DNA of 64,000 bases from Gemmatimonadaceae bacterium (GCA_025358925.1 JANYHT010000017.1:180432-244431), one strand, 5' to 3'. Positions 33,304 through 43,205 are shown, counted from the stretch's first letter. A program made the numbers and translations. The notes: generated by a model not told the origin, from the sequence alone.

Positions 33304-33827
33304 CCTCCGCTTGGAGCACTGGCGTCTTTCGCGCCACCAGGCATCGAGCTCGATTCAGGCATTTCCCCTTTCACTACTGCGAGCATAGCCACCGTATCTG
33401 AATGCGCGGCGCCGTTGACCATAAATGACCGCATCCAAATGTGTGCGTCCACCGTCGGCAGAGCGAGTATTGTAAAAGTATAACGGGCCTTCCTTGTCAA
33501 CAGCGAAGGGCAAATCGTTCACGCGTTTGCCGTCGCTGAATTCCCGGCGCAAGTACCGAGCGAGCTTGCGCATCCGTATCGATGTAGAGCATGCGCCGGT
33601 TCATCGGATCGACCAACAGCGTGCTGAAATCAATGCGCTGCACCACACGTTCACGACGATCACTGGCGATCACGCGTCCATCGCGCAGTTCTCGGATACT
33701 CGTAACGTCAGTAAACGGCGAAGTGAATTCCGCATCGGGCTTGCCGAGTGATTTGGCCGCGGGTTGCTGCGCGGAGGGAGCGGACATGACAAGCAGAAGA
33801 CATGAGTACCAACAAAATGGGTATCAT
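33304..33827 (-). pseudogene. Remnant of a third member of the 30271/31789 secreted family
   Basis: FTDVTSIRELRDGRVIASDRRERVV, FAVDKEGPLYF and HSDTVAML occur in different frames and parallel the paralogs. Deleted and frameshifted. Confidence 0.6.
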
Positions 33828-33890
33828 GCCGTAACGTGCCGATACTTACCGTCGGTATCAATTCTCTCTCCATTCTTTGGCCTAAGGCCT

Positions 33891-35030
33891 ATGTCGCGCA
33901 CTCGCTCTGCGGCAATCCTCCTCCTCGCTATCACTGCATGCAGCACTGATGGTCTTGGTGGAGTGGACGGCACTTCGACAGGCCTGACGCCAACGCGCGC
34001 CGTGCCGTGGACACCCAGTGTGTTCACGCAGCCCGTGCCGAGTTGGGGATCACCGGTGCGATTGAACTTGCCAGTCGCGCTTGCTGACATCTTGCTTGGC
34101 CCCATCTACGGACTCGGTGCCTTCGGTGCGCATGAAGGCGGTCATGTGGAAGGACTGAATCATGTGTGGATTCCAACGCGGCAAGGTATTCCTGTGCGTA
34201 GTTGGGCCGCCGGCACCGTCACGAAAATTGAAGACATGGGCGCGCGTGGTACGGCAGATGGTCGCCACGAATATTTCATCACGATTGACTACGGACAAGG
34301 ACTCGTCGGCAAGCATCTCGACGTCGATGTGCCGCTGGTCAAATTCGGCGACAAGGTGAAAGAAGGGGATCCAGTTGGCTCGATGAGCGGGAGTGCGGAG
34401 TTCAATCTCATCGACAACAATCGCACAGACGGTGAGCGTACCGGCGGAATCACCGGTGCACCGGTGTCACCCTTTGACTACTTACGTGATGACGTGAAAG
34501 CAGCGCTCGTTGCACGACACGTTGCCGAAGTAGTCGAACCATATTTTCGGAAGGGCAACGTAGCTGGCAATGGTCGTCCGTGGGAGCCGTATCTGACAAA
34601 CCAAATGTTGTATCACGCCGACCATCGCGGCACGTTTGTTGGCGAATGGATATTGACGAATAAAAACTGGAAAACACCGGACGCCGTGTACTACGATGTG
34701 ATGGCGTTGTTTGATGTAACGAATGCGTACGGACACTTTCAACGCATTGAGTTGATGGACCACGACTGGTCCGCTCTCGGCAACAAAAACCACATTGTCG
34801 GCGCGTGGCTTACGACCGATGGGCCGGGCAAAGTGGTGCTCGCACTCGAGCGAGGTGCGCCGTGGTTTGCGCTGTACGCGGTAACTGAAAGCAATGGTCG
34901 CGCCGCCTTGACGATGGAATGGAAGCAAGGCAGCTATCCGGTGGCGATTACCGCGAATGCGGCGTTCTACAGCGAGCGTTCGGCGATCTACCTTGGCGGT
35001 GACGCGCGGGCGTTGGGACTCGCGAAGTAG
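33891..35030 (+). CDS. Lipoprotein with M23-peptidase-like fold features
   Basis: Lipobox LLAITAC. IPVRSWAAGTVTKI, GKHLDV, VKFGDKVKEGDPVG. Confidence 0.55.
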   Translation: MSRTRSAAILLLAITACSTDGLGGVDGTSTGLTPTRAVPWTPSVFTQPVPSWGSPVRLNLPVALADILLGPIYGLGAFGAHEGGHVEGLNHVWIPTRQGIPVRSWAAGTVTKIEDMGARGTADGRHEYFITIDYGQGLVGKHLDVDVPLVKFGDKVKEGDPVGSMSGSAEFNLIDNNRTDGERTGGITGAPVSPFDYLRDDVKAALVARHVAEVVEPYFRKGNVAGNGRPWEPYLTNQMLYHADHRGTFVGEWILTNKNWKTPDAVYYDVMALFDVTNAYGHFQRIELMDHDWSALGNKNHIVGAWLTTDGPGKVVLALERGAPWFALYAVTESNGRAALTMEWKQGSYPVAITANAAFYSERSAIYLGGDARALGLAK

Positions 35031-35104
35031 CCGCATTTGTACCGGCGCTGAAAACAACCCATCACAAATACGTGGCATCGCTCTCGTCTTCCACCGGAGT
35101 TTCC

Positions 35105-35461
35105 GTGTCTACTGCGGCTACGATTGTTGTTGCGCTGATTGGTGTTCTGCACGTCTACATCCTCGTGCTGGAAATGTTTTTGTGGGATAAGCCCGCTGGA
35201 CTTCGCGCGTTTCGACAGACGCAGGCGGCCGCAACGGCGTCCAAAGTTTTAGCTGCGAACCAAGGTCTCTACAACGGCTTTCTCGCGGCGGGATTGTTCT
35301 GGGGCGTACGGTTGGGCACGGCTGGACGCGACGTAAGCGTATTCTTCCTCCTCTGCGTGCTCGTTGCGGGCGTGTATGCAGCGGCGACTGCAAATAAAAA
35401 AATCTTATTCGTGCAGGCGGTACCAGCGGCAATAGGATTGGCACTGGTTTTGCTCGGGTAG
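35105..35461 (+). CDS. DUF1304 membrane protein
   Basis: LHVYILVLEMFLW, ANQGLYNGFLAAGL. Confidence 0.88.
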   Translation: MSTAATIVVALIGVLHVYILVLEMFLWDKPAGLRAFRQTQAAATASKVLAANQGLYNGFLAAGLFWGVRLGTAGRDVSVFFLLCVLVAGVYAAATANKKILFVQAVPAAIGLALVLLG

Positions 35462-35547
35462 GTATCGTACCAAACGGTACAATCATCTTTGGTTTAACTA
35501 CGTTGCCCGCTCTGTGGTGCCAACCTTCACTCTTAACGAGCAATGCC

Positions 35548-35952
35548 TTGGATCAACCAGAAGCAACCCCGACTATTCCGCTCCGCTTTGGCGTGTTCTA
35601 TCCGCAAGGCTCCGTCGTTCTCGCGTTTCCTGACGCCGCGACCGCCGAACATGTGCGCGTGAGTCTATTGGAGGGTGGTTATGACGACACGGAGGTACAA
35701 CTTTTTACGGCAGAATACGTCGCGAAAGCATCCGAGACCAACACCGAGCATGCCTCGGCACTCGCGAAGGTAGTCGGCGCAGAACTTGATGCCGTGGCGC
35801 GGCACCTCGAATTGGCGAAGGAAGGCAATGCCTTCTTGGTCGTGCCGGCACCATCTGATGCAGAAACCACACGAGTGTTGCGCGTTGCGCATCGACACAC
35901 ATTAACGTTAGCGCAGAAATACGACCGGTTTACGATCTCGGAACTGCTGTAG
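35548..35952 (+). CDS. Conserved hypothetical protein
   Basis: FGVFYPQGSVVLAF...AQKYDRFTISEL. Start uncertain. Confidence 0.65.
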   Translation: MDQPEATPTIPLRFGVFYPQGSVVLAFPDAATAEHVRVSLLEGGYDDTEVQLFTAEYVAKASETNTEHASALAKVVGAELDAVARHLELAKEGNAFLVVPAPSDAETTRVLRVAHRHTLTLAQKYDRFTISELL

Positions 35953-38136
35953 TCACGGACGCGCGATTGCGTCTCGCCACGGCGCGAAGTCGTCATACAA
36001 ACGACGCACGAACGAATCGCCAAGTTGAATGCGCGTGATGGCACCGTTGCGGGATGCATCGTGTACAAGCAATTCAATTTTTGGCAATGACCCATCGTCA
36101 CGCGGTAAGAAAGCCGTAGGCGGAATAGTTGCCACGAACGCATTCGGCACCGGCTTGCCAGCGGTCGCATGCGCCGCTGCGTTCACCAGCGCTGGTATGT
36201 GCGACGATGCGTCGAGTGCGACGGCCGCACCGTCTCGCAAAAGTTCGACCGCTGCAACATCGCCGCGCTTAATATCGAATATTTTTTCAGGAGCATACGA
36301 CGGCCACGGCACTTTGTCTGGCGTAACCTCTAGCACGTACACCGCACGTCGTGACGTCACAAGCGAGCTCCACGCACTCCACTGTTCGATCGGGTCCACC
36401 ATTTCGTATGCGCCACCAGAGGGCCTCGGGTTGGCATCTTTCCACGCACGCGCTTGTGCCGCGCGCCACGCAAATATCGGGGTGGGCATGATGGTCACGC
36501 GCACGTCGCCATTTCGCGCCATTCGCGATTTCGCATCAACGCCGCGTTCAAGTATCGCGAGCACTGCCGCGTCTGGATAACGCGCTCGCACGTTGTTCAC
36601 ACGCAGCGTGCTTTCGGCAGCCATTCGCGTCCGCCGCGCAAGTTCACGCTTCACTGAATCTTTCTGCGCGCGCTTAGCGCTGTCTGCTACGGCTTTTGCC
36701 GTAAGCGCTTTCGCTGAGTCTACGCTCGGCGTGACCGACACCACCGTCAAAGCCGGTACGCTTGATGGAACAACCACGACACGCGTCGCCGTGTCGGCAA
36801 TGGCGCGAGGCGGCGTCGCGTCAGTGTTGGACGGCGGCGATTCACGTGATTCGCGCGCAACAGCAAACCATAGCGCAGCCGCAACAGGCACAGCGCCCAG
36901 TACCAGCCATGGCCAAAGCGAACGCGCTGGCAGACGCGGCAACGGCCTCCCATCGGTCACCGCAGGTCCCCCGGTATCCGACGCGAGCGCATCGGTAGTC
37001 GTCACGCCCGTTGCAGACGCACGCGACACAACCGCGAGTGGCACTGGTGGTGTTGGTAAAGCGCTTAACACACCGCCGGTGATGCGCTGCGAATCGCCCG
37101 CGCTGTGCGGTGTGCGCGCCGCGACATTCGCCACGCGCGTATCAAGTGCGCGACGATAGAGTTCCGCCGTTTGCGTGGGCGTCATTGCACTAATCGCACC
37201 AGAAAATGCATGCGCAAAATCAGACACCGTTTCAAATCGTTCGTGCGGTTCCGGCGACAATGCCCGATCAAAAATCTCTTGGAGCGTTCCGTTCCATTCA
37301 ACATCGCGCTTGGCTTCCTGCAACGTGCGCGGGCGACTCGTGAGCCGCGCAATCAGCGATTCCTTTGACGACTCTGACGGGAACGCCTGCTTACCGGTAA
37401 GCGCAAAAAACGCTACCAAGGCCAGTGCATACTGATCACTTCGCGCATTGAGAGTGTCACCCGCTAACTGCTCTGGTGACATGTACTCGGGCGTGCCAAT
37501 GGCGAAGCCCGTACGCGTCACCCGCTGATCGCTCCCATCCATCGACCGCGCGATACCAAAGTCCACGAGCTTCACCATGTACGTGCCATCGCTGCGACGG
37601 CCGAGCATGATATTGTCGGGCTTGATGTCGCGATGCAGCATATTCAGATCGTGCGCTGCCTGTAGTGCATCCGCCGCTTGGCCGAGAATGTCAGCGGCCA
37701 CATCCGGATGCAACACACCATCGCGATCCAGCATCGCGCCCATCGATTGGCCATCCACATATTCCATCGCGAGATACACGACGCCTTCTGGCGTTTCGCC
37801 GAAATCGAAAATGGCCGCAATGTTGGGATGTGACAATTGACTCGCGTGTTCGGCCTCGCGCGTGAAGCGCTGCAGCGCATCAATATCGCCCACCAACGCG
37901 GGCCGCATGATTTTGATCGCGCTCTTGCGCTTCATTCGCACGTGTTCGGCCAGATACACCTGACCCATGCCGCCCTCGCCAATGCGCGACACAATCCGAT
38001 AGCGATCCGCGATTACCGTGCCCACGAGGTCGCCGAGCTGTCCACCGCGGATAAGCCGTGTGCCGTCCGTTGCGCAAAACGCGACGGCGTCATCATAGGT
38101 CGCACCGCATTGGGGACAGATTTTCGTCAGAGACAC
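35953..38136 (-). CDS. Hanks-type Ser/Thr protein kinase: N-terminal Zn ribbon, TM helix, novel C-terminal extracytoplasmic domain
   Basis: CPQC..CATDG, IGEGGMGQVY, AIK, HRDIKPDN, DFG, GTPEYMSPEQ. TM WPWLVLGAVPVAAALWFAV. Confidence 0.93.
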   Translation of the reverse strand: MSLTKICPQCGATYDDAVAFCATDGTRLIRGGQLGDLVGTVIADRYRIVSRIGEGGMGQVYLAEHVRMKRKSAIKIMRPALVGDIDALQRFTREAEHASQLSHPNIAAIFDFGETPEGVVYLAMEYVDGQSMGAMLDRDGVLHPDVAADILGQAADALQAAHDLNMLHRDIKPDNIMLGRRSDGTYMVKLVDFGIARSMDGSDQRVTRTGFAIGTPEYMSPEQLAGDTLNARSDQYALALVAFFALTGKQAFPSESSKESLIARLTSRPRTLQEAKRDVEWNGTLQEIFDRALSPEPHERFETVSDFAHAFSGAISAMTPTQTAELYRRALDTRVANVAARTPHSAGDSQRITGGVLSALPTPPVPLAVVSRASATGVTTTDALASDTGGPAVTDGRPLPRLPARSLWPWLVLGAVPVAAALWFAVARESRESPPSNTDATPPRAIADTATRVVVVPSSVPALTVVSVTPSVDSAKALTAKAVADSAKRAQKDSVKRELARRTRMAAESTLRVNNVRARYPDAAVLAILERGVDAKSRMARNGDVRVTIMPTPIFAWRAAQARAWKDANPRPSGGAYEMVDPIEQWSAWSSLVTSRRAVYVLEVTPDKVPWPSYAPEKIFDIKRGDVAAVELLRDGAAVALDASSHIPALVNAAAHATAGKPVPNAFVATIPPTAFLPRDDGSLPKIELLVHDASRNGAITRIQLGDSFVRRLYDDFAPWRDAIARP

Positions 38137-38760
38137 GCGGCGCGCGAAGGGAGGCAGGAAGGACAGAACATCGGGCAATACGTACGCGTAAAGTAGCGCG
38201 CGACCTGCCACGAGTGGCGATACTTACCTCGCCTGTTGCCCCGAGCGACAATGAACGCGCACGCCACTCTTCGGTTCAAAACAGCGACGACCCTCTCAGC
38301 CTGCGGTTGCATGGTCGCGAGGCCAGATGGTCCAACACGGCGCGATTGTTCCGTTACTCAGTTGTAACGGGTCCAAAACTGCGCGATCGAGCTCGCCATT
38401 GATCCCTGCAACGCGCCGAGTCCATGATCCGTTTGAACGCGAGAATTTCGAGTGATAGTGCGGGAGTGCGACTCACACCGCCGCGTTGGCGATAGCTCCA
38501 CGCAGAGTCGGGCGTTGGCGGGACGTGTCGAGGGACGAAAATCGACTGCTGGACGAGAATCGGAGCGTACAGTCGTCCCACGTGTCCAGCCGTAACGCCG
38601 CGACGATAGCTAGAAGGATTTTCGTGCGGCGCGATGTGAAGCGGATCATCACCCGCAACTTGCCGCGCGCGCAATTGACCCGGCAAGGTTGGCGATGAAC
38701 GGTTGCGTAGCGCAATATTTGCAGGCACGGTGCCGAACACGTTTTGTCCGGAGATAGCGC

Positions 38761-39636
38761 ATGACCGATCCAACGCCGACGCCGCAGCGACCTTCGATAC
38801 CGCCGACACTCCGACGCGCAGTCGATGGGCGTGAGCGTGTGATCCTCACCGTGTCGGGCTTTGGACTAGTCCTCGCGGGTGTGGCGTTGCTTACGCTACC
38901 GCCTCCGGATGCTCGTGGAAACGCCTCCTCCACGATGGTTGCCGTGTTGCCAGCACCTGCGCCGGTGGTGCCGCCGACCGTGACGGTGCCTGTCGCGCAG
39001 CCAGTGATAGTGCCAGTACCACAGCCATCTGCGCCGCCAGTGACGGTCGAGAAACCGGTACCGAAGCCGTCGCCGAAACTGTTGCCGAAATCACCAGAAA
39101 AAGTTCAATTAAAAAAGATCGAGAAGCCGACTGCGAAGGTCGTAGCGAAAGTTGCAACTAAGCCACCGACGCCCGTTCGTGGTCGCGTATCATTGTGCGA
39201 GCAATACGTCACTGCCGAAGCGTGGCATGACGCGTTCGCCTCGTGCACCGATGAGGCGCAAAACGGCAATGTGCCAGCGCAACGCCGATTGGCCATGATG
39301 TATCTCGACGGCCGTGGCACTGGTCGCGACGAATCACGCGCCGCGCGATGGTTTACTGATGCGGCCACGGCGGGCGACGTAGAGTCCATGTATCAACTCG
39401 CGGTATCGTACGAACGCGGACGTGGGATCAAGAAAGATCGTGATGCAGCGCTGCGATTCTACACGCAGGCTGCAGACGGTGGGTACGCCGCCGCGCAGTA
39501 TGCTGTCGGTGAGGCGTACGAGCACGGACGACTCGGAGCATCGAGGAATAAGAGCACGGCGATCGAGTGGTATCGAAAAGCAGCGGCGCAAAACTTTCGT
39601 GATGCCGCAGACAAAGTGCGCGGACTCTCGCGTTGA
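38761..39636 (+). CDS. Membrane-anchored Sel1-like repeat protein with Pro/Lys-rich linker
   Basis: AQRRLAMMYLDGRG, SMYQLAVSYERGRG, AQYAVGEAYEHG..WYRKAAAQ. Confidence 0.9.
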   Translation: MTDPTPTPQRPSIPPTLRRAVDGRERVILTVSGFGLVLAGVALLTLPPPDARGNASSTMVAVLPAPAPVVPPTVTVPVAQPVIVPVPQPSAPPVTVEKPVPKPSPKLLPKSPEKVQLKKIEKPTAKVVAKVATKPPTPVRGRVSLCEQYVTAEAWHDAFASCTDEAQNGNVPAQRRLAMMYLDGRGTGRDESRAARWFTDAATAGDVESMYQLAVSYERGRGIKKDRDAALRFYTQAADGGYAAAQYAVGEAYEHGRLGASRNKSTAIEWYRKAAAQNFRDAADKVRGLSR

Positions 39637-40469
39637 AGCACTCGACGCCACGCGCCTTTCCGCAGAGCGTGACTGCGGCCGCGATCGCAGGATGGATGGG
39701 CGGGTCGGTTGCGTGGGGCATAAGCAGCCGGTGGATGGACGCAACGTCATATCTGCGCACGAATGGCCGACTCGACCAACTCGTCGCACTGTTGTTGGGT
39801 GCAACTGCGGGTGCGTTTGTATTGGTGGTACGGGCGCGGCATCGACGCGAATCGCTCGTACCCGCACTCGGTGCCGGTGCGTTGCTCGGCGGTATTCCTG
39901 CGTTAATTGGTGCGACAATCTGCGTGTGGTTGCTCAGCGCTGATAGCGCCGGTCGCTTTGTTCTGATGCGAATGATCGCATGGGCGTTCAGTACCGCGCT
40001 TGCCGCGATGGGCCTGTCGCGTTTTACGCGCACGCCCACAACGCGTATCACGCTAGAGAGTCTCGCACTTGGCGCACTCGGCGGCGCGATCGCCGGTGCG
40101 ATATACAGCTTGCCAGGGCCGTCGGAGTTGTGGTTACCTGTTGCGATGGCGTGGACAGGTGCGGCCATTGGTGTCGCAGGCACCGGTCCACTGCTATGGT
40201 GCGCTGCTGTTACGGTGCATGTGTTGCCGCCGCGCGATGAACGGCGCACGATGTGGTCGCTGCACGAACGCGCCGTCGAGCGCGGGACATCGATGAAGTT
40301 GTCGGATGCGCAGGTCGCGTGCGTTGGTGATGTGGTGTATGTGTATCCGCCGCCGGGCGGGGCGGTGCTTGACGGATATCCACTATATCGCGCGGTGCCG
40401 CTCCAACGGGACGCGCTGTTGGCCGTTGGGCGTGCACGTTTTCGTCTTACGCTGGGGAAGCGCGGATGA
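39633..40469 (+). CDS. Multi-TM membrane protein with degenerate C-terminal FHA-like domain
   Basis: About 6 Gly/Ala-rich TM helices, then AVLDGYPLYRAVPLQRDALLAVGRARFRL, resembling the last FHA strands. Confidence 0.55.
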   Translation: MKHSTPRAFPQSVTAAAIAGWMGGSVAWGISSRWMDATSYLRTNGRLDQLVALLLGATAGAFVLVVRARHRRESLVPALGAGALLGGIPALIGATICVWLLSADSAGRFVLMRMIAWAFSTALAAMGLSRFTRTPTTRITLESLALGALGGAIAGAIYSLPGPSELWLPVAMAWTGAAIGVAGTGPLLWCAAVTVHVLPPRDERRTMWSLHERAVERGTSMKLSDAQVACVGDVVYVYPPPGGAVLDGYPLYRAVPLQRDALLAVGRARFRLTLGKRG

Positions 40470-41098
40470 ACGTTTTGCGGTATCGCGCGATGACGCGGTT
40501 GTTTGCGTCGATCGGCATCGTTGTTGCAAGTCAGCTTCGCGCGCAATCACCAACAGTGCCATTGCGGCTTGTGCGATGTGGACCGCAGTTGCGAGCGGCA
40601 TGTTTGTCGGCGCGATTTGTTATGAACGACGGCGTGCAAACGGCGGTGTTTGGCGTGCCAACGCTCCCGCTGTCCTCACTCGCGCGCGCGCCGTTGCAGC
40701 GCATACTCGCGGTGCAACGTGGCAGTGCCACCGTCGCGCGCCTGAATGTGTCGTGGCAGCCGCCATTGTTCGGCGCACCCCTAGCCTTCGGCGTGGCCGA
40801 CTCGCTCACCATGTCCGTGGCATTGCGGGAAGCGCTCGCGACCGGTGTGGATCCTGCCGGCGTGCGCTCGGTAATCGCGCTGCTCCTCGCGATTGTCAGC
40901 CTGCTCTTATTCGTGGGCGTTCCCCGCGTGCTGTGGTTCGAGCAACGCGAAACGGAAGACGATTTGGCACGGCAGCTCGCGGCAGCGCGCGCCGTGTTGT
41001 CGACGCAAGAGTTAGAGCAATGGCGCGGAAAACCTCCGCAGGATGGCAGTCCGCGACATCCGGAAGAGCCCACGCGGGAATCGGGGCGGTCTTCGTGA
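40466..41098 (+). CDS. Hypothetical secreted/membrane protein
   Basis: ATGA/GTGA coupling on both sides. N-terminal signal and C-terminal TM helix. Confidence 0.55.
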   Translation: MNVLRYRAMTRLFASIGIVVASQLRAQSPTVPLRLVRCGPQLRAACLSARFVMNDGVQTAVFGVPTLPLSSLARAPLQRILAVQRGSATVARLNVSWQPPLFGAPLAFGVADSLTMSVALREALATGVDPAGVRSVIALLLAIVSLLLFVGVPRVLWFEQRETEDDLARQLAAARAVLSTQELEQWRGKPPQDGSPRHPEEPTRESGRSS

Positions 41099-42048
41099 GC
41101 TGCGCTCAAGTGCAGAACGCGCTATTCGCGCTGTGCGCTGCGCTTGTGCTGCCGCAGGCGGCGCGCGCGCAGGCAGTGTCGGCGGTACCGCGCGCAACTG
41201 CGGAAGCGAAACAAGCGCAAGATCGCGCGACGCTCATGCGCTATTGCGATCGCATTGACTCTGTGTCAGCGTCAACATTGCAAGGCATCCGTGATCGTAG
41301 CGACTGTTGGAAGCGCATTCAATTGGAAGGGCTGGGGAGCGCGCTGGTTGAAGAACGGTATCAATCGGCAGTACGTGCGTACGACAGCATGGTGCAGGTC
41401 GATTCGTTCAAGCGTGCCGTCGTCGCACGTGAAGCGCGCGTCGATCAAGAGTTGCTTGCGGTGCAACAGTTTATCATCGCGCGCGACTTGGACGCGGCCA
41501 TGAGTGCGGTGAACAGCGTCTTAAGCGTGCAGTCGCAAAATCCGCGCGCGCAGGCGTTTCGAGAGCGCATCTTTGCATTGCGCCAGGCGCAACAGTTGCG
41601 TGTTGCCGTATACGTCGCCTCCGGATTGGTGCTGCTTACGGCGCTCATTTTGGTGCTGTCGGCATGGTTCGTGGCGCTACGACAATCGCGTGCAAATCGT
41701 GCCGAGCGTGAGAAGGCAGCGCTGCGGAGGGCAATGGTGAAAATTACGGATGGTATTGGACGCGGAAAAATGTATACGATTGATGGCGCGTTGTTTCGTA
41801 TTGGGTCGGCGCTCTCCGATCGGCCGGAGGAGAAAAATGACTTGGTGCTCAGTGACGAGACGGCGTACGTGTCTCGGTATCACTGTGCGATTTTGCGGAA
41901 AGATGGGAACTATTATCTGATTGATTCGTCGCTCAATGGCACGTACCTCAATGAGGATATGGTGGATCGCGGTGAACCGTATTTGATCGAAGACGGGGAT
42001 GAACTTTCGGTGGCAGGGATGGCTCGACTCAAATTCTTGCTGGTTTGA
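41095..42048 (+). CDS. Signal peptide + TPR-like helical domain + TM + cytoplasmic FHA domain
   Basis: GTG start overlaps the previous TGA. FRIGS...NDLVL..VSRYHC..YYLIDSSLNGTYLN...IEDGDELSV. Confidence 0.85.
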   Translation: MSCAQVQNALFALCAALVLPQAARAQAVSAVPRATAEAKQAQDRATLMRYCDRIDSVSASTLQGIRDRSDCWKRIQLEGLGSALVEERYQSAVRAYDSMVQVDSFKRAVVAREARVDQELLAVQQFIIARDLDAAMSAVNSVLSVQSQNPRAQAFRERIFALRQAQQLRVAVYVASGLVLLTALILVLSAWFVALRQSRANRAEREKAALRRAMVKITDGIGRGKMYTIDGALFRIGSALSDRPEEKNDLVLSDETAYVSRYHCAILRKDGNYYLIDSSLNGTYLNEDMVDRGEPYLIEDGDELSVAGMARLKFLLV

Positions 42049-43205
42049 GTGCGAAACGGGAGCGCGCCGATGGTCCATCGATCGCGGCGGTCAGCAAATC
42101 GATCAATGTGTAAATGCAGGCCAGTGCCTGCGCGGTCAGATAGACCCGCATTGATCGCGGCGTGCACTTGGCGCTGCAATATGGAATCCTGCGAAAAATC
42201 TTTGACACGAATCCCGTACGTGTGACATTGGGTCACCACAAACGCGACCTGTTCGTTGGTCATGATCTTACTGCGCAAGTCTAAGGCGCCACCTGGTCCG
42301 TATAGCGCGAGATGCTCGGGATGATCGCGCCCAACGACAATGATGTTGGTGTGATACCGCAATCGAAACGCAGCGGAGACCAAATCAAACGTGTACGCAA
42401 ACTGTTCACGCGTGAGCGATGCTGCGCGCATTTGATCGGCGCTCGTGCCGGCGCGCGCATTGACGTATGCGTCAGGCACGGCTAAACGATGCGATCGATA
42501 GATCGTCGCTACCGAATTCTCGAGCGCGGCGATACGCGGTTTGACCTGCGGGTGATTGCGCAGTGGGCTCAGGGCCAGCGTATTGATGCCACGCGCAAAT
42601 TCTTGCGCGGCTTCGTCGGCAATGCCGAGTTCCAACAATGAATTGGCGCGTTCAAGATGATCGTACGCGACAATAAGGAGTGAGTCGAGGCGAGCGGCCT
42701 GTTGATCTGAGAGTACTGAAAGTGCACTGTCGGAAGTGCGCGGTCCGTACCGTATGACGGCGTACGCCGCGCCGAACAGCACGCAGGCGACCCCGAACAT
42801 CGAGAGCGCTTTCCACGCAAACGGACGGTCGGGCTTTTTGAAGTCGACGTTGCGTCGACGGCGTGGTGGCGCGGGCACGGCTGACTGCAACGGCAGCTCG
42901 CGCGTTCGTGTCTCGCCACTGACAAATTCCCAACGGTGTTGCGGTGTGAGTTCAATAACGTCGCGGTCAAACAACCGCGTCGGACCGGACACCAGCATCC
43001 CGTTCACGCGCAGCGCTGCGACGCCATCGGCGATGAACCATCGGCCATCGGCCTGTTCAAGCACTACGTGGCGAGCGGCAATGCCATCGCCTTCGAGGTA
43101 TGCGTCGCAGGATGCATCGCTGCCCATCACGAGACGCGCGCGCCCCGTGATGGAGATCGCGTCTCCTTCAGTGGGGATCACCGGCCTGAGCGATGCGGAA
43201 ACCAT
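41913..43205 (-). CDS. Degenerate FHA + TM + C-terminal M15/Hedgehog-like (LAS) metallopeptidase-like domain
   Basis: N-terminus VMGSDASCDAYL..IAARHVVL..LRVNG..LFDRDVIEL. C-terminus DHPEH....GGALDLRS...LHLHID. Confidence 0.6.
   Translation of the reverse strand: MVSASLRPVIPTEGDAISITGRARLVMGSDASCDAYLEGDGIAARHVVLEQADGRWFIADGVAALRVNGMLVSGPTRLFDRDVIELTPQHRWEFVSGETRTRELPLQSAVPAPPRRRRNVDFKKPDRPFAWKALSMFGVACVLFGAAYAVIRYGPRTSDSALSVLSDQQAARLDSLLIVAYDHLERANSLLELGIADEAAQEFARGINTLALSPLRNHPQVKPRIAALENSVATIYRSHRLAVPDAYVNARAGTSADQMRAASLTREQFAYTFDLVSAAFRLRYHTNIIVVGRDHPEHLALYGPGGALDLRSKIMTNEQVAFVVTQCHTYGIRVKDFSQDSILQRQVHAAINAGLSDRAGTGLHLHIDRFADRRDRWTIGALPFRTQTSKNLSRAIPATESSSPSSIKYGSPRSTISSLRYVPLSDESIR

Follow-up and report, generated by a model that had tools for sequence, protein, structure and literature searches.

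Positions 35953–43205 of a 64,000-nucleotide stretch of DNA from a Gemmatimonadaceae bacterium (GCA_025358925.1, JANYHT010000017.1:180432-244431; the whole stretch is referred to here as the window) hold five closely packed genes for membrane proteins, B to F, with a gene for a Ser/Thr kinase, A, on one side. An earlier note on this DNA had read the locus as a kinase-centred trans-envelope phospho-signalling system with three FHA domains; here we describe the five genes, their relationship to a type VI secretion system (T6SS) and the standing of the kinase. The open reading frames (ORFs) that the note had called were all recovered in an ORF listing, and each product, kinase A and B–F alike, has at least one hydrophobic transmembrane (TM) segment, in agreement with the view that every product spans the membrane.

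Genes B (38761–39636), C (39633–40469), D (40466–41098) and E (41095–42048) lie on the plus strand and form the tightly coupled four-gene operon that had been proposed: each neighbouring pair shares 4 nt (B/C at 39633–39636, C/D at 40466–40469, D/E at 41095–41098, GTGA), and E starts with a GTG codon that overlaps the stop codon of D, an arrangement indicating translational coupling. Gene F (41913–43205, minus strand), the signature gene of the module, is the convergent FHA/TM gene that closes the locus; by ORF coordinates, the 3′ ends of E and F overlap by approximately 135 nt (41913–42048), and a convergent overlap of some 129 nt recurs in L036, L037, L038 and L040. The C-terminal 50 or so residues of F, the coding region of which is antisense to the FHA domain of E, are disordered. 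It may be added that this tail, which ends in ESIR, is kept in relatives, its conservation being probably due only to antisense constraint from E. Pfam and NCBIfam scans of the locus proteins found no PASTA, PP2C or T6SS core genes, just as the earlier note had stated; a PP2C phosphatase had no match in any locus protein or flank, and T6SS core genes (TssBC, VgrG, TssFGK, ClpV) were not found among the ORFs scanned between 30.2 and 47.8 kb of the window. A promoter and terminator scan of the locus gave signals no better than those of shuffled sequences.

The first protein of the module, B (291 residues), combines an N-terminal TM segment (residues 27–45), a Pro-rich linker and periplasmic Sel1 repeats (Pfam Sel1, E-value 3.6e-28). 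Protein C is a Gly/Ala-rich, polytopic membrane protein with at least four TM segments and a conserved, soluble C-terminal domain of about 85 residues. It matches no Pfam or NCBIfam family; a PDB profile search with the C family returned noise only, and its 25 homologues are either unnamed or annotated as hypothetical. In Gemmatimonadota loci, homologues of C are found next to F. An FHA-like domain in C was considered and rejected: Pfam and NCBIfam give no signal for one, and hhalign assigns a probability of 0.1% to a match with the FHA domain of E. The locus accordingly encodes two FHA domains (in E and F) and not three; the genome as a whole encodes five. In protein D, a signal peptide and a short periplasmic part precede a TM helix, after which comes a cytoplasmic tail bearing an acidic-Thr motif. 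This motif, [DE][DE]xT[HRK], lies within about 20 residues of the C-terminus in 8/8 homologues inspected, and it is kept where the vWA domain found in some paralogues of D (see below) is lost; its variants include PEEPTRES in the window, PEDITHQT in L002 and FDITKD on contig C25 of the window's genome. We regard PEEPTRES as a candidate phosphorylation site.

The two FHA proteins differ in topology. Protein E (317 residues; Pfam FHA, E-value 5.6e-15) starts with a signal/TM segment; a helical periplasmic domain and a TM helix follow, and the FHA domain is C-terminal and cytoplasmic. It scores below the cut-off of the TagH-like model TIGR03354 (E-value 8e-14) and weakly against an FhaB model (E-value 4e-7). 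Of the characteristic residues of its FHA domain, S-R-Y-H and N-G are conserved, and G-S/A stands in place of G-R. Protein F (430 residues; Pfam FHA, E-value 4.5e-7) begins with a cytoplasmic, non-canonical (YscD-like) FHA domain; beyond its TM helix lie a periplasmic region of three helices and then a conserved α/β domain. Both the phosphate-binding Arg and the Ser are missing from this FHA domain, as they are from YscD; the match to Yop-YscD_cpl has an E-value of 4e-5 and 24 bits against a family cut-off of 33. Foldseek, run with an AlphaFold2 (AF2) model of full-length F (mean predicted local distance difference test score 77), retrieved FHA domains only, with YscD and PscD among the top matches.

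The C-terminal domain of F carries a cluster of invariant residues (H295, E297, H298, D309, H364, H366 and D368, across 61 sequences), including the arrangements H298-x10-D309 and H364-x-H366; AF2 models, which for this domain were confident in only one run of five, give it a β-α repeat core. An M15/LAS peptidase identity was tried for this periplasmic domain and rejected, no comparison having reached significance, the PDB profile search included: there is nothing in Pfam at an E-value of 1 or below, hhalign gives a probability of 0.25% against the VanY domain from a relative, and the domain model has no Foldseek match below an E-value of 0.1 in PDB (best 0.17). In BFVD, the best viral matches of the model are M15-type endolysins (E-values 0.06–0.28), headed by an endolysin peptidase. 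In the M15 family, the metal-ligand pattern H-x(n)-D ... H-x-H normally has a shorter spacing than in F. With these endolysin fold matches, and with a motif order that can be aligned by eye, an M15 reading of F remains a weak lead. Neither of the labels previously attached to these proteins, 'TPR-like' for E and 'peptidase-like' for F, has significant family or fold support.

Relatives of all five genes are found in the same genome, around a T6SS that is divergent and complete and that occupies positions 149000–174968 of contig C25, running to the contig end. The order there is: Zn-ribbon protein, C′ (287 residues), D′ (vWA, 479 residues), TssB, TssC (PF17541), two small ORFs, VgrG, TssF-like, TssG, TssK, ClpV, E′ (TM-FHA), a short kinase, a convergent F′ and a Zn-ribbon-Sel1 protein. 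In blastp and tblastn comparisons, the window proteins are 35% (B, with the Zn-ribbon-Sel1 protein), 27% (C, with c25_287), 33% (D), 38% (E) and 43% (F) identical to these paralogues, and identities to L002 are higher. Protein D aligns with residues 301–430 of L2_u436 and 335–403 of c25_VWA479 (blastp): it corresponds to a shortened version of its paralogue at the T6SS locus, the vWA-TM-tail protein, and has lost the vWA domain, which occurs only in the T6SS-embedded paralogue. The T6SS gene order is identical in five further loci from four genera; in all T6SS loci examined, the gene after ClpV is E′, and neighbourhoods of F homologues contain the same five genes, plus a 243-residue kinase, directly beside ClpV, TssG, TssF and VgrG. 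The window locus is this T6SS frame, in the same order and orientation, minus two elements. One is the TssB...ClpV block. The other is the short, soluble Hanks kinase (243–265 residues; 265 on C25, with HRDIK, DFG and APE present) that lies between E and F on C25; there is none between them in the window, because the two genes overlap and leave no room. On sequence comparison, then, B–F prove to be paralogous to the accessory genes on either side of the Gemmatimonadota T6SS operon. The earlier note had set its idea of a new system against the prospect that the locus maps onto a described T6SS/Tad accessory cluster; this holds in part, the genes being paralogous to T6SS-bracketing ones, but that accessory set is itself undescribed.

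We scanned GTDB species representatives and obtained 66 loci with 71 copies of F, all of them labelled Gemmatimonadota except for two contigs. F and the Gemmatimonadota-type TssC match the same 7 of 201 genomes of the phylum, a coincidence with a calculated chance probability of ~4e-13. Among the 71 copies, 27 have the order F-E-ClpV, 5 (in Longimicrobia) are embedded in a permuted T6SS and 16 belong to a tail-less F-E-D-C-Sel1 arrangement; the remainder are on contigs too short to classify. Of 48 informative loci, 16 have the five-gene tail-less module, and no copy of F occurs in an unrelated gene context. Roughly half of the E/F pairs, the window's included, lack the short kinase, and the F-E gap is correspondingly bimodal: about 90 nt or less, or an overlap, where the kinase is absent, versus 585–1000 nt where it is present. 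Three genomic loci (L045, L051 and L053) are tandem doubles in which only the tail-less copy has the short kinase; in the window's genome, it is the embedded copy only.

A maximum-likelihood tree of 67 F copies places 14 of the 16 tail-less copies, together with 4 unclassified ones, in one clade (support 100/99). In the larger clade that contains it (100/97), its neighbours are the embedded copies, without the kinase, from genomes with double loci; there is also another, small tail-less clade, of independent origin. The tree topology indicates that most tail-less copies stem from one duplication, the tandem form of which survives in some Gemmatimonadales. The window's F and the embedded F′ of the same genome fall on different branches, so the two copies have had different histories. 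Relative to two congeners (L021 and L008), genes B–F show ratios of nonsynonymous to synonymous divergence (dN/dS) of 0.08–0.17 at dS values of ~0.8–1.2, from which we conclude that the module is not decaying. Sel1-C-D-E-F is a conserved and co-inherited unit, represented by 16 species-level loci and held under purifying selection. A gene-neighbourhood analysis of the kind that the earlier note had proposed bears out the co-occurrence of B–F; the kinase is not conserved with them.

We consider it likely that B–F constitute a T6SS-derived, five-protein envelope module that is tail-less and is probably now independent of a T6SS. The relevant evidence comes from 15 genomes with tail-less modules, which were tested for sheath genes. 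The Gemmatimonadota-type TssC is missing from 14 of these and is present only in the closest relative of the window's genome (G252); F is single-copy in 12–13 of the 15, and in 8 neither type of sheath gene is present. Such a consistent lack of the parent sheath gene (14/15) is hard to ascribe to incompleteness, and autonomy is for this reason favoured, roughly twofold, over a role in trans for a T6SS. That second role would make the module a second membrane-complex or assembly-control set that serves the C25 tail and shares its short kinase. Both the window's genome and G252 do have module and T6SS together, and 7 of the 15 tail-less genomes have some T6SS; moreover, only one E/F pair is accompanied by a short kinase in L045, L051, L053 and here, which suggests that one kinase serves both. 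Against this role stand the absence of the cognate sheath gene from 14 of the 15 genomes and of any sheath gene from 8, the loss of the vWA domain from D, and the placement of this genome's two F copies on different branches of the tree. In addition, the canonical T6SS (T6SS-i) of G253, which like some other Gemmatimonadaceae has it on a contig (C7; L102, L103) other than that of the tail-less module, has its own TssM, as well as TssA, TssF, TssG and TssK. We judge the trans-acting role to be rather unlikely.

Several points weigh against an independent envelope module. The window's own genome carries the parent-type T6SS. The 15 genomes are metagenome-assembled genomes (MAGs) of unestablished completeness, and the canonical T6SS-i sheath gene that is present in 6 of them has to be read without a base rate for the phylum. 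As for function, the canonical phosphate-binding Arg is missing from the FHA domains of both E and F, and the whole basis of the hydrolase idea for F is its invariant residues and a motif resemblance.

We hypothesize that the five proteins assemble into an inner-membrane/periplasmic complex, in which the FHA domains of E and F would serve as cytoplasmic docking modules. E might bind the acidic-Thr tail of D once a kinase acting in trans, such as the short kinase of C25, has phosphorylated it; the FHA domain of F is probably phospho-independent, in the manner of SctD/YscD. On the other side of the membrane, the Sel1 protein and the periplasmic domain of F, where the invariant His/Asp/Glu cluster lies, would bind the cell wall or act on it. 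Ancestrally, the set may have served to anchor the T6SS and let it through, as an analogue of a membrane complex that included a TagX-like part for opening the wall, and the tail-less copy would most likely now be an independent envelope-remodelling or sensing complex. Phospho-signalling in the form first proposed is doubtful, since this copy of the module does not include a kinase, the FHA domain of E lacks the Arg, and that of F lacks both Arg and Ser.

The membrane complex of the parent T6SS is also of interest. The Gemmatimonadota-type TssC matches the T6SS-iii-type model PF17541 and not VipB. TssM (PF06761) is absent from 7/7 T6SS-positive Gemmatimonadota genomes (the E. coli control was positive), and families for TssJ, TssL and TssN-R were not found among the T6SS locus proteins in Pfam and NCBIfam. 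With no TssM, and no TssJ, TssL or TssNQOPR family, the parent set becomes a candidate third kind of T6SS membrane complex. We tentatively extend this to a proposal that is possible but on the doubtful side: that Sel1/C/D/E/F is such a third kind, equipped with FHA docking and wall-opening domains, and that the tail-less copy is its free-living form, kept by selection where a genome has no T6SS.

The nearest analogue is TssNQOPR, the membrane complex of the Bacteroidota T6SS-iii, in which TssN is polytopic and has a cytoplasmic domain, TssR contains a vWA domain, and TssQ and TssO are bitopic and helical (PMC10781749). The two are lineage-specific sets of similar kinds of membrane proteins, each going with a T6SS that lacks TssJLM, and a part-for-part comparison would set TssN against C/C′, TssR (vWA) against D′, and TssQ/O against E and F. 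The two differ, however, in that the Gemmatimonadota proteins have no match to the TssN-R families (Pfam and NCBIfam, the comparison being by sequence families) and in that the Gemmatimonadota set has two FHA domains, Sel1 repeats and a minimal Hanks kinase. Moreover, T6SS-iii was not found outside Bacteroidota, nor were homologues of its membrane complex found outside T6SS loci (Bongiovanni et al. 2024, PMC10781749), whereas Gemmatimonadota have a complete tail-less copy, often in genomes without the Gemmatimonadota-type T6SS.

Another point of comparison is the threonine phosphorylation pathway of T6SSs, made up of PpkA/TagE, PppA/TagG, Fha1/TagH and TagQRST (PMC13584744). The Gemmatimonadota T6SS is likewise encoded together with a Hanks kinase and FHA proteins; the window's E scores on the TagH model, below its cut-off, and there is a conserved Thr in the cytoplasmic tail of D. 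In contrast, neither a PP2C phosphatase nor TagQRST was found in the locus; the FHA proteins are anchored in the membrane and have no phosphate-binding Arg; and the kinase is a soluble, minimal domain of 243–265 residues. TagX, a membrane-anchored L,D-endopeptidase of the VanY superfamily that is needed for the Acinetobacter T6SS (PMC5061870, PMC13584744), resembles F in its layout: both are anchored in the membrane near the N-terminus and have a periplasmic domain on the C-terminal side, which in F contains invariant His and Asp residues. The F motifs GRDHxEHxxLYG, GGALDL, YGIRVKDF and GLHLHID can be aligned by eye on the VanY domain of a relative, homology to TagX or a shared fold being unconfirmed; TagX differs in having no FHA domain.

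Looking beyond the T6SS, F is similar to SctD/YscD of the type III secretion system inner-membrane ring in that a cytoplasmic FHA domain without phospho-binding residues is joined by one TM helix to a periplasmic domain. Nevertheless, F lacks the periplasmic, ring-building (BON-like) domains, and there is no other type III secretion gene in the locus. The actinobacterial PknB/FhaA/FhaB (FipA) proteins offer a looser parallel, namely membrane-linked FHA proteins and Hanks kinases tied to envelope functions; the differences are that this locus has neither PASTA nor MviN/FtsZ-linked partners, nor a link to division or cell-wall genes, and that the lineage is diderm.

Passage of a T6SS across the envelope without TssJLM has been solved only for Bacteroidota, in 2024, and whether membrane complexes originated by co-option is a standing question. 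Gemmatimonadota provide a natural experiment in this regard, as the same membrane proteins can be compared with and without a secretion tail, and the stand-alone module may reveal an ancestral or a derived activity of a T6SS membrane complex. If the set is indeed a third kind of anchoring, the tail-less copy would show how such complexes get co-opted or released, and what their activity is once the tail is gone. In the literature searched, the only Gemmatimonadota T6SS mentioned is a T6SS-i (i4b) on a Gemmatimonadaceae plasmid, and no description was found of the B–F module or of its T6SS accessory set.

We now turn to the kinase. The longest ORF of gene A spans 35953–38211; comparison with a 727-residue orthologue in L021 places its start at 38136 (hence 35953–38136, minus strand). 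The protein consists of a degenerate Zn-ribbon, a kinase domain, one TM helix and a 300-residue, C-terminal periplasmic domain. The kinase domain (Pkinase, E-value 1e-43) and the TM helix of the earlier description are secure; the Zn-ribbon is a weak match (E-value 0.046). To the PknB_PASTA model, the protein aligns over the catalytic part only (model residues 2–303 of 563; 265 bits against a cut-off of 450), and the C-terminal domain has no family and no PDB relative.

A single kinase-centred system, in which kinase A and B–F together signal across the envelope as the earlier note had it, would gain from the condition of the kinase, the catalytic motifs of which (HRDIK, DFG, SPE) are intact and which is under purifying selection (dN/dS = 0.10), and from a module that lacks a kinase of its own. 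The genes also adjoin here and, with a TIR gene between them, in L021, the closest relative (protein C is 89% and the kinase 87% identical to the window proteins). It is the L021 order that undermines this adjacency: M23-like, DUF1304, 134 residues, kinase (minus), TIR-TM of 390 residues (minus), Sel1 (plus), C, D, E and F (minus). Intact in L021 between the kinase and Sel1 genes, the TIR-TM gene survives in the window as a remnant at 38236–38680 (minus strand; tblastn with the L021 gene, 80–86% identity in separate frames), in which about 32 N-terminal and about 95 C-terminal codons are retained, frameshifted, and the TIR domain and TM helix are deleted. The divergent arrangement of kinase and operon is real in the window but secondary, because the intervening TIR gene has decayed.

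Wider comparisons lead the same way. The periplasmic domain of kinase A is present in 14 of 61 genomes of the family, and of the 13 besides the window's own, 12 lack F. The nearest orthologue, in G211 (71% identical in the kinase domain), has none of B–F within 7 kb, and other tail-less modules are flanked by a multi-TM protein of 623–640 residues plus TIR, or by unrelated genes. The window's genome, moreover, has many Hanks kinases. Membership of kinase A in the system was consequently rejected, as orthologues occur without the module and related modules without kinase A. Kinase A is a chance neighbour of B–F and not part of the unit, and we hold the kinase-centred system to be very improbable. 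Upstream of the kinase, positions 33591–35952 contain an M23-like peptidase gene (below the Pfam cut-off), a DUF1304 gene and an ORF of 134–149 residues, all syntenic with L021, and this synteny assigns kinase A to that resident neighbourhood. The annotation of the locus is corrected on two counts: the kinase lies outside the system, and the FHA domains number two. What survives of the 'undescribed envelope apparatus' is an altered form of it, a tail-less set derived from a T6SS, from which the kinase is excluded.

The TIR gene invites a different thought, that B–F, together with the neighbouring TIR-TM protein and, in relatives, the multi-TM protein of 623 residues, make up a defence or conflict system at the membrane. 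TIR-TM genes are found on the Sel1 side in L006, L007, L021, L037, L040, L041 and L042, as well as in remnant form here, and their TIR domains weakly match ThsB. But none of the embedded loci has TIR, nor does the other subclade of tail-less modules; the association is limited to one clade and may be inherited synteny; in the window, TIR has decayed while B–F remain under selection, and B–F have no PADLOC match. We find a defence role very hard to credit. A known defence system was also tried and rejected, the PADLOC matches being only to generic kinase models and to a weakly ThsB-like TIR. The possibility that B–F are the functionless, decaying remnant of a T6SS locus, for which the missing core genes and short kinase, the truncated D and the neighbouring TIR pseudogene might speak, is close to negligible given five intact and translationally coupled ORFs, the low dN/dS values and a five-gene unit kept across a deep clade.

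Some further observations were made in passing. The multi-TM protein that accompanies TIR-TM on the Sel1 side in a Gemmatimonadaceae subclade (L006:14833-17892 and L007:14653-17790; also L037, L040, L041 and L042) has 623–640 residues, a soluble N-terminal domain and 3–5 TM helices; it may be SLOG/SLATT-like. This protein and TIR-TM could work as a partner system, or their pairing could simply reflect inherited synteny. The two contigs not labelled Gemmatimonadota, L050 (a MAG labelled Bacillota) and L092 (a MAG labelled Acidimicrobiales), carry Gemmatimonadota-type T6SS loci; the F copy of L050 nests within a Gemmatimonadales clade of the F tree, and for both contigs mis-binning is likelier than transfer. 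Finally, the T6SS on contig C25, which has no TssM, is flanked by genes for a 593-residue OmpA/peptidoglycan-binding protein and a 942-residue protein without a family, and by a CsgG-like gene.

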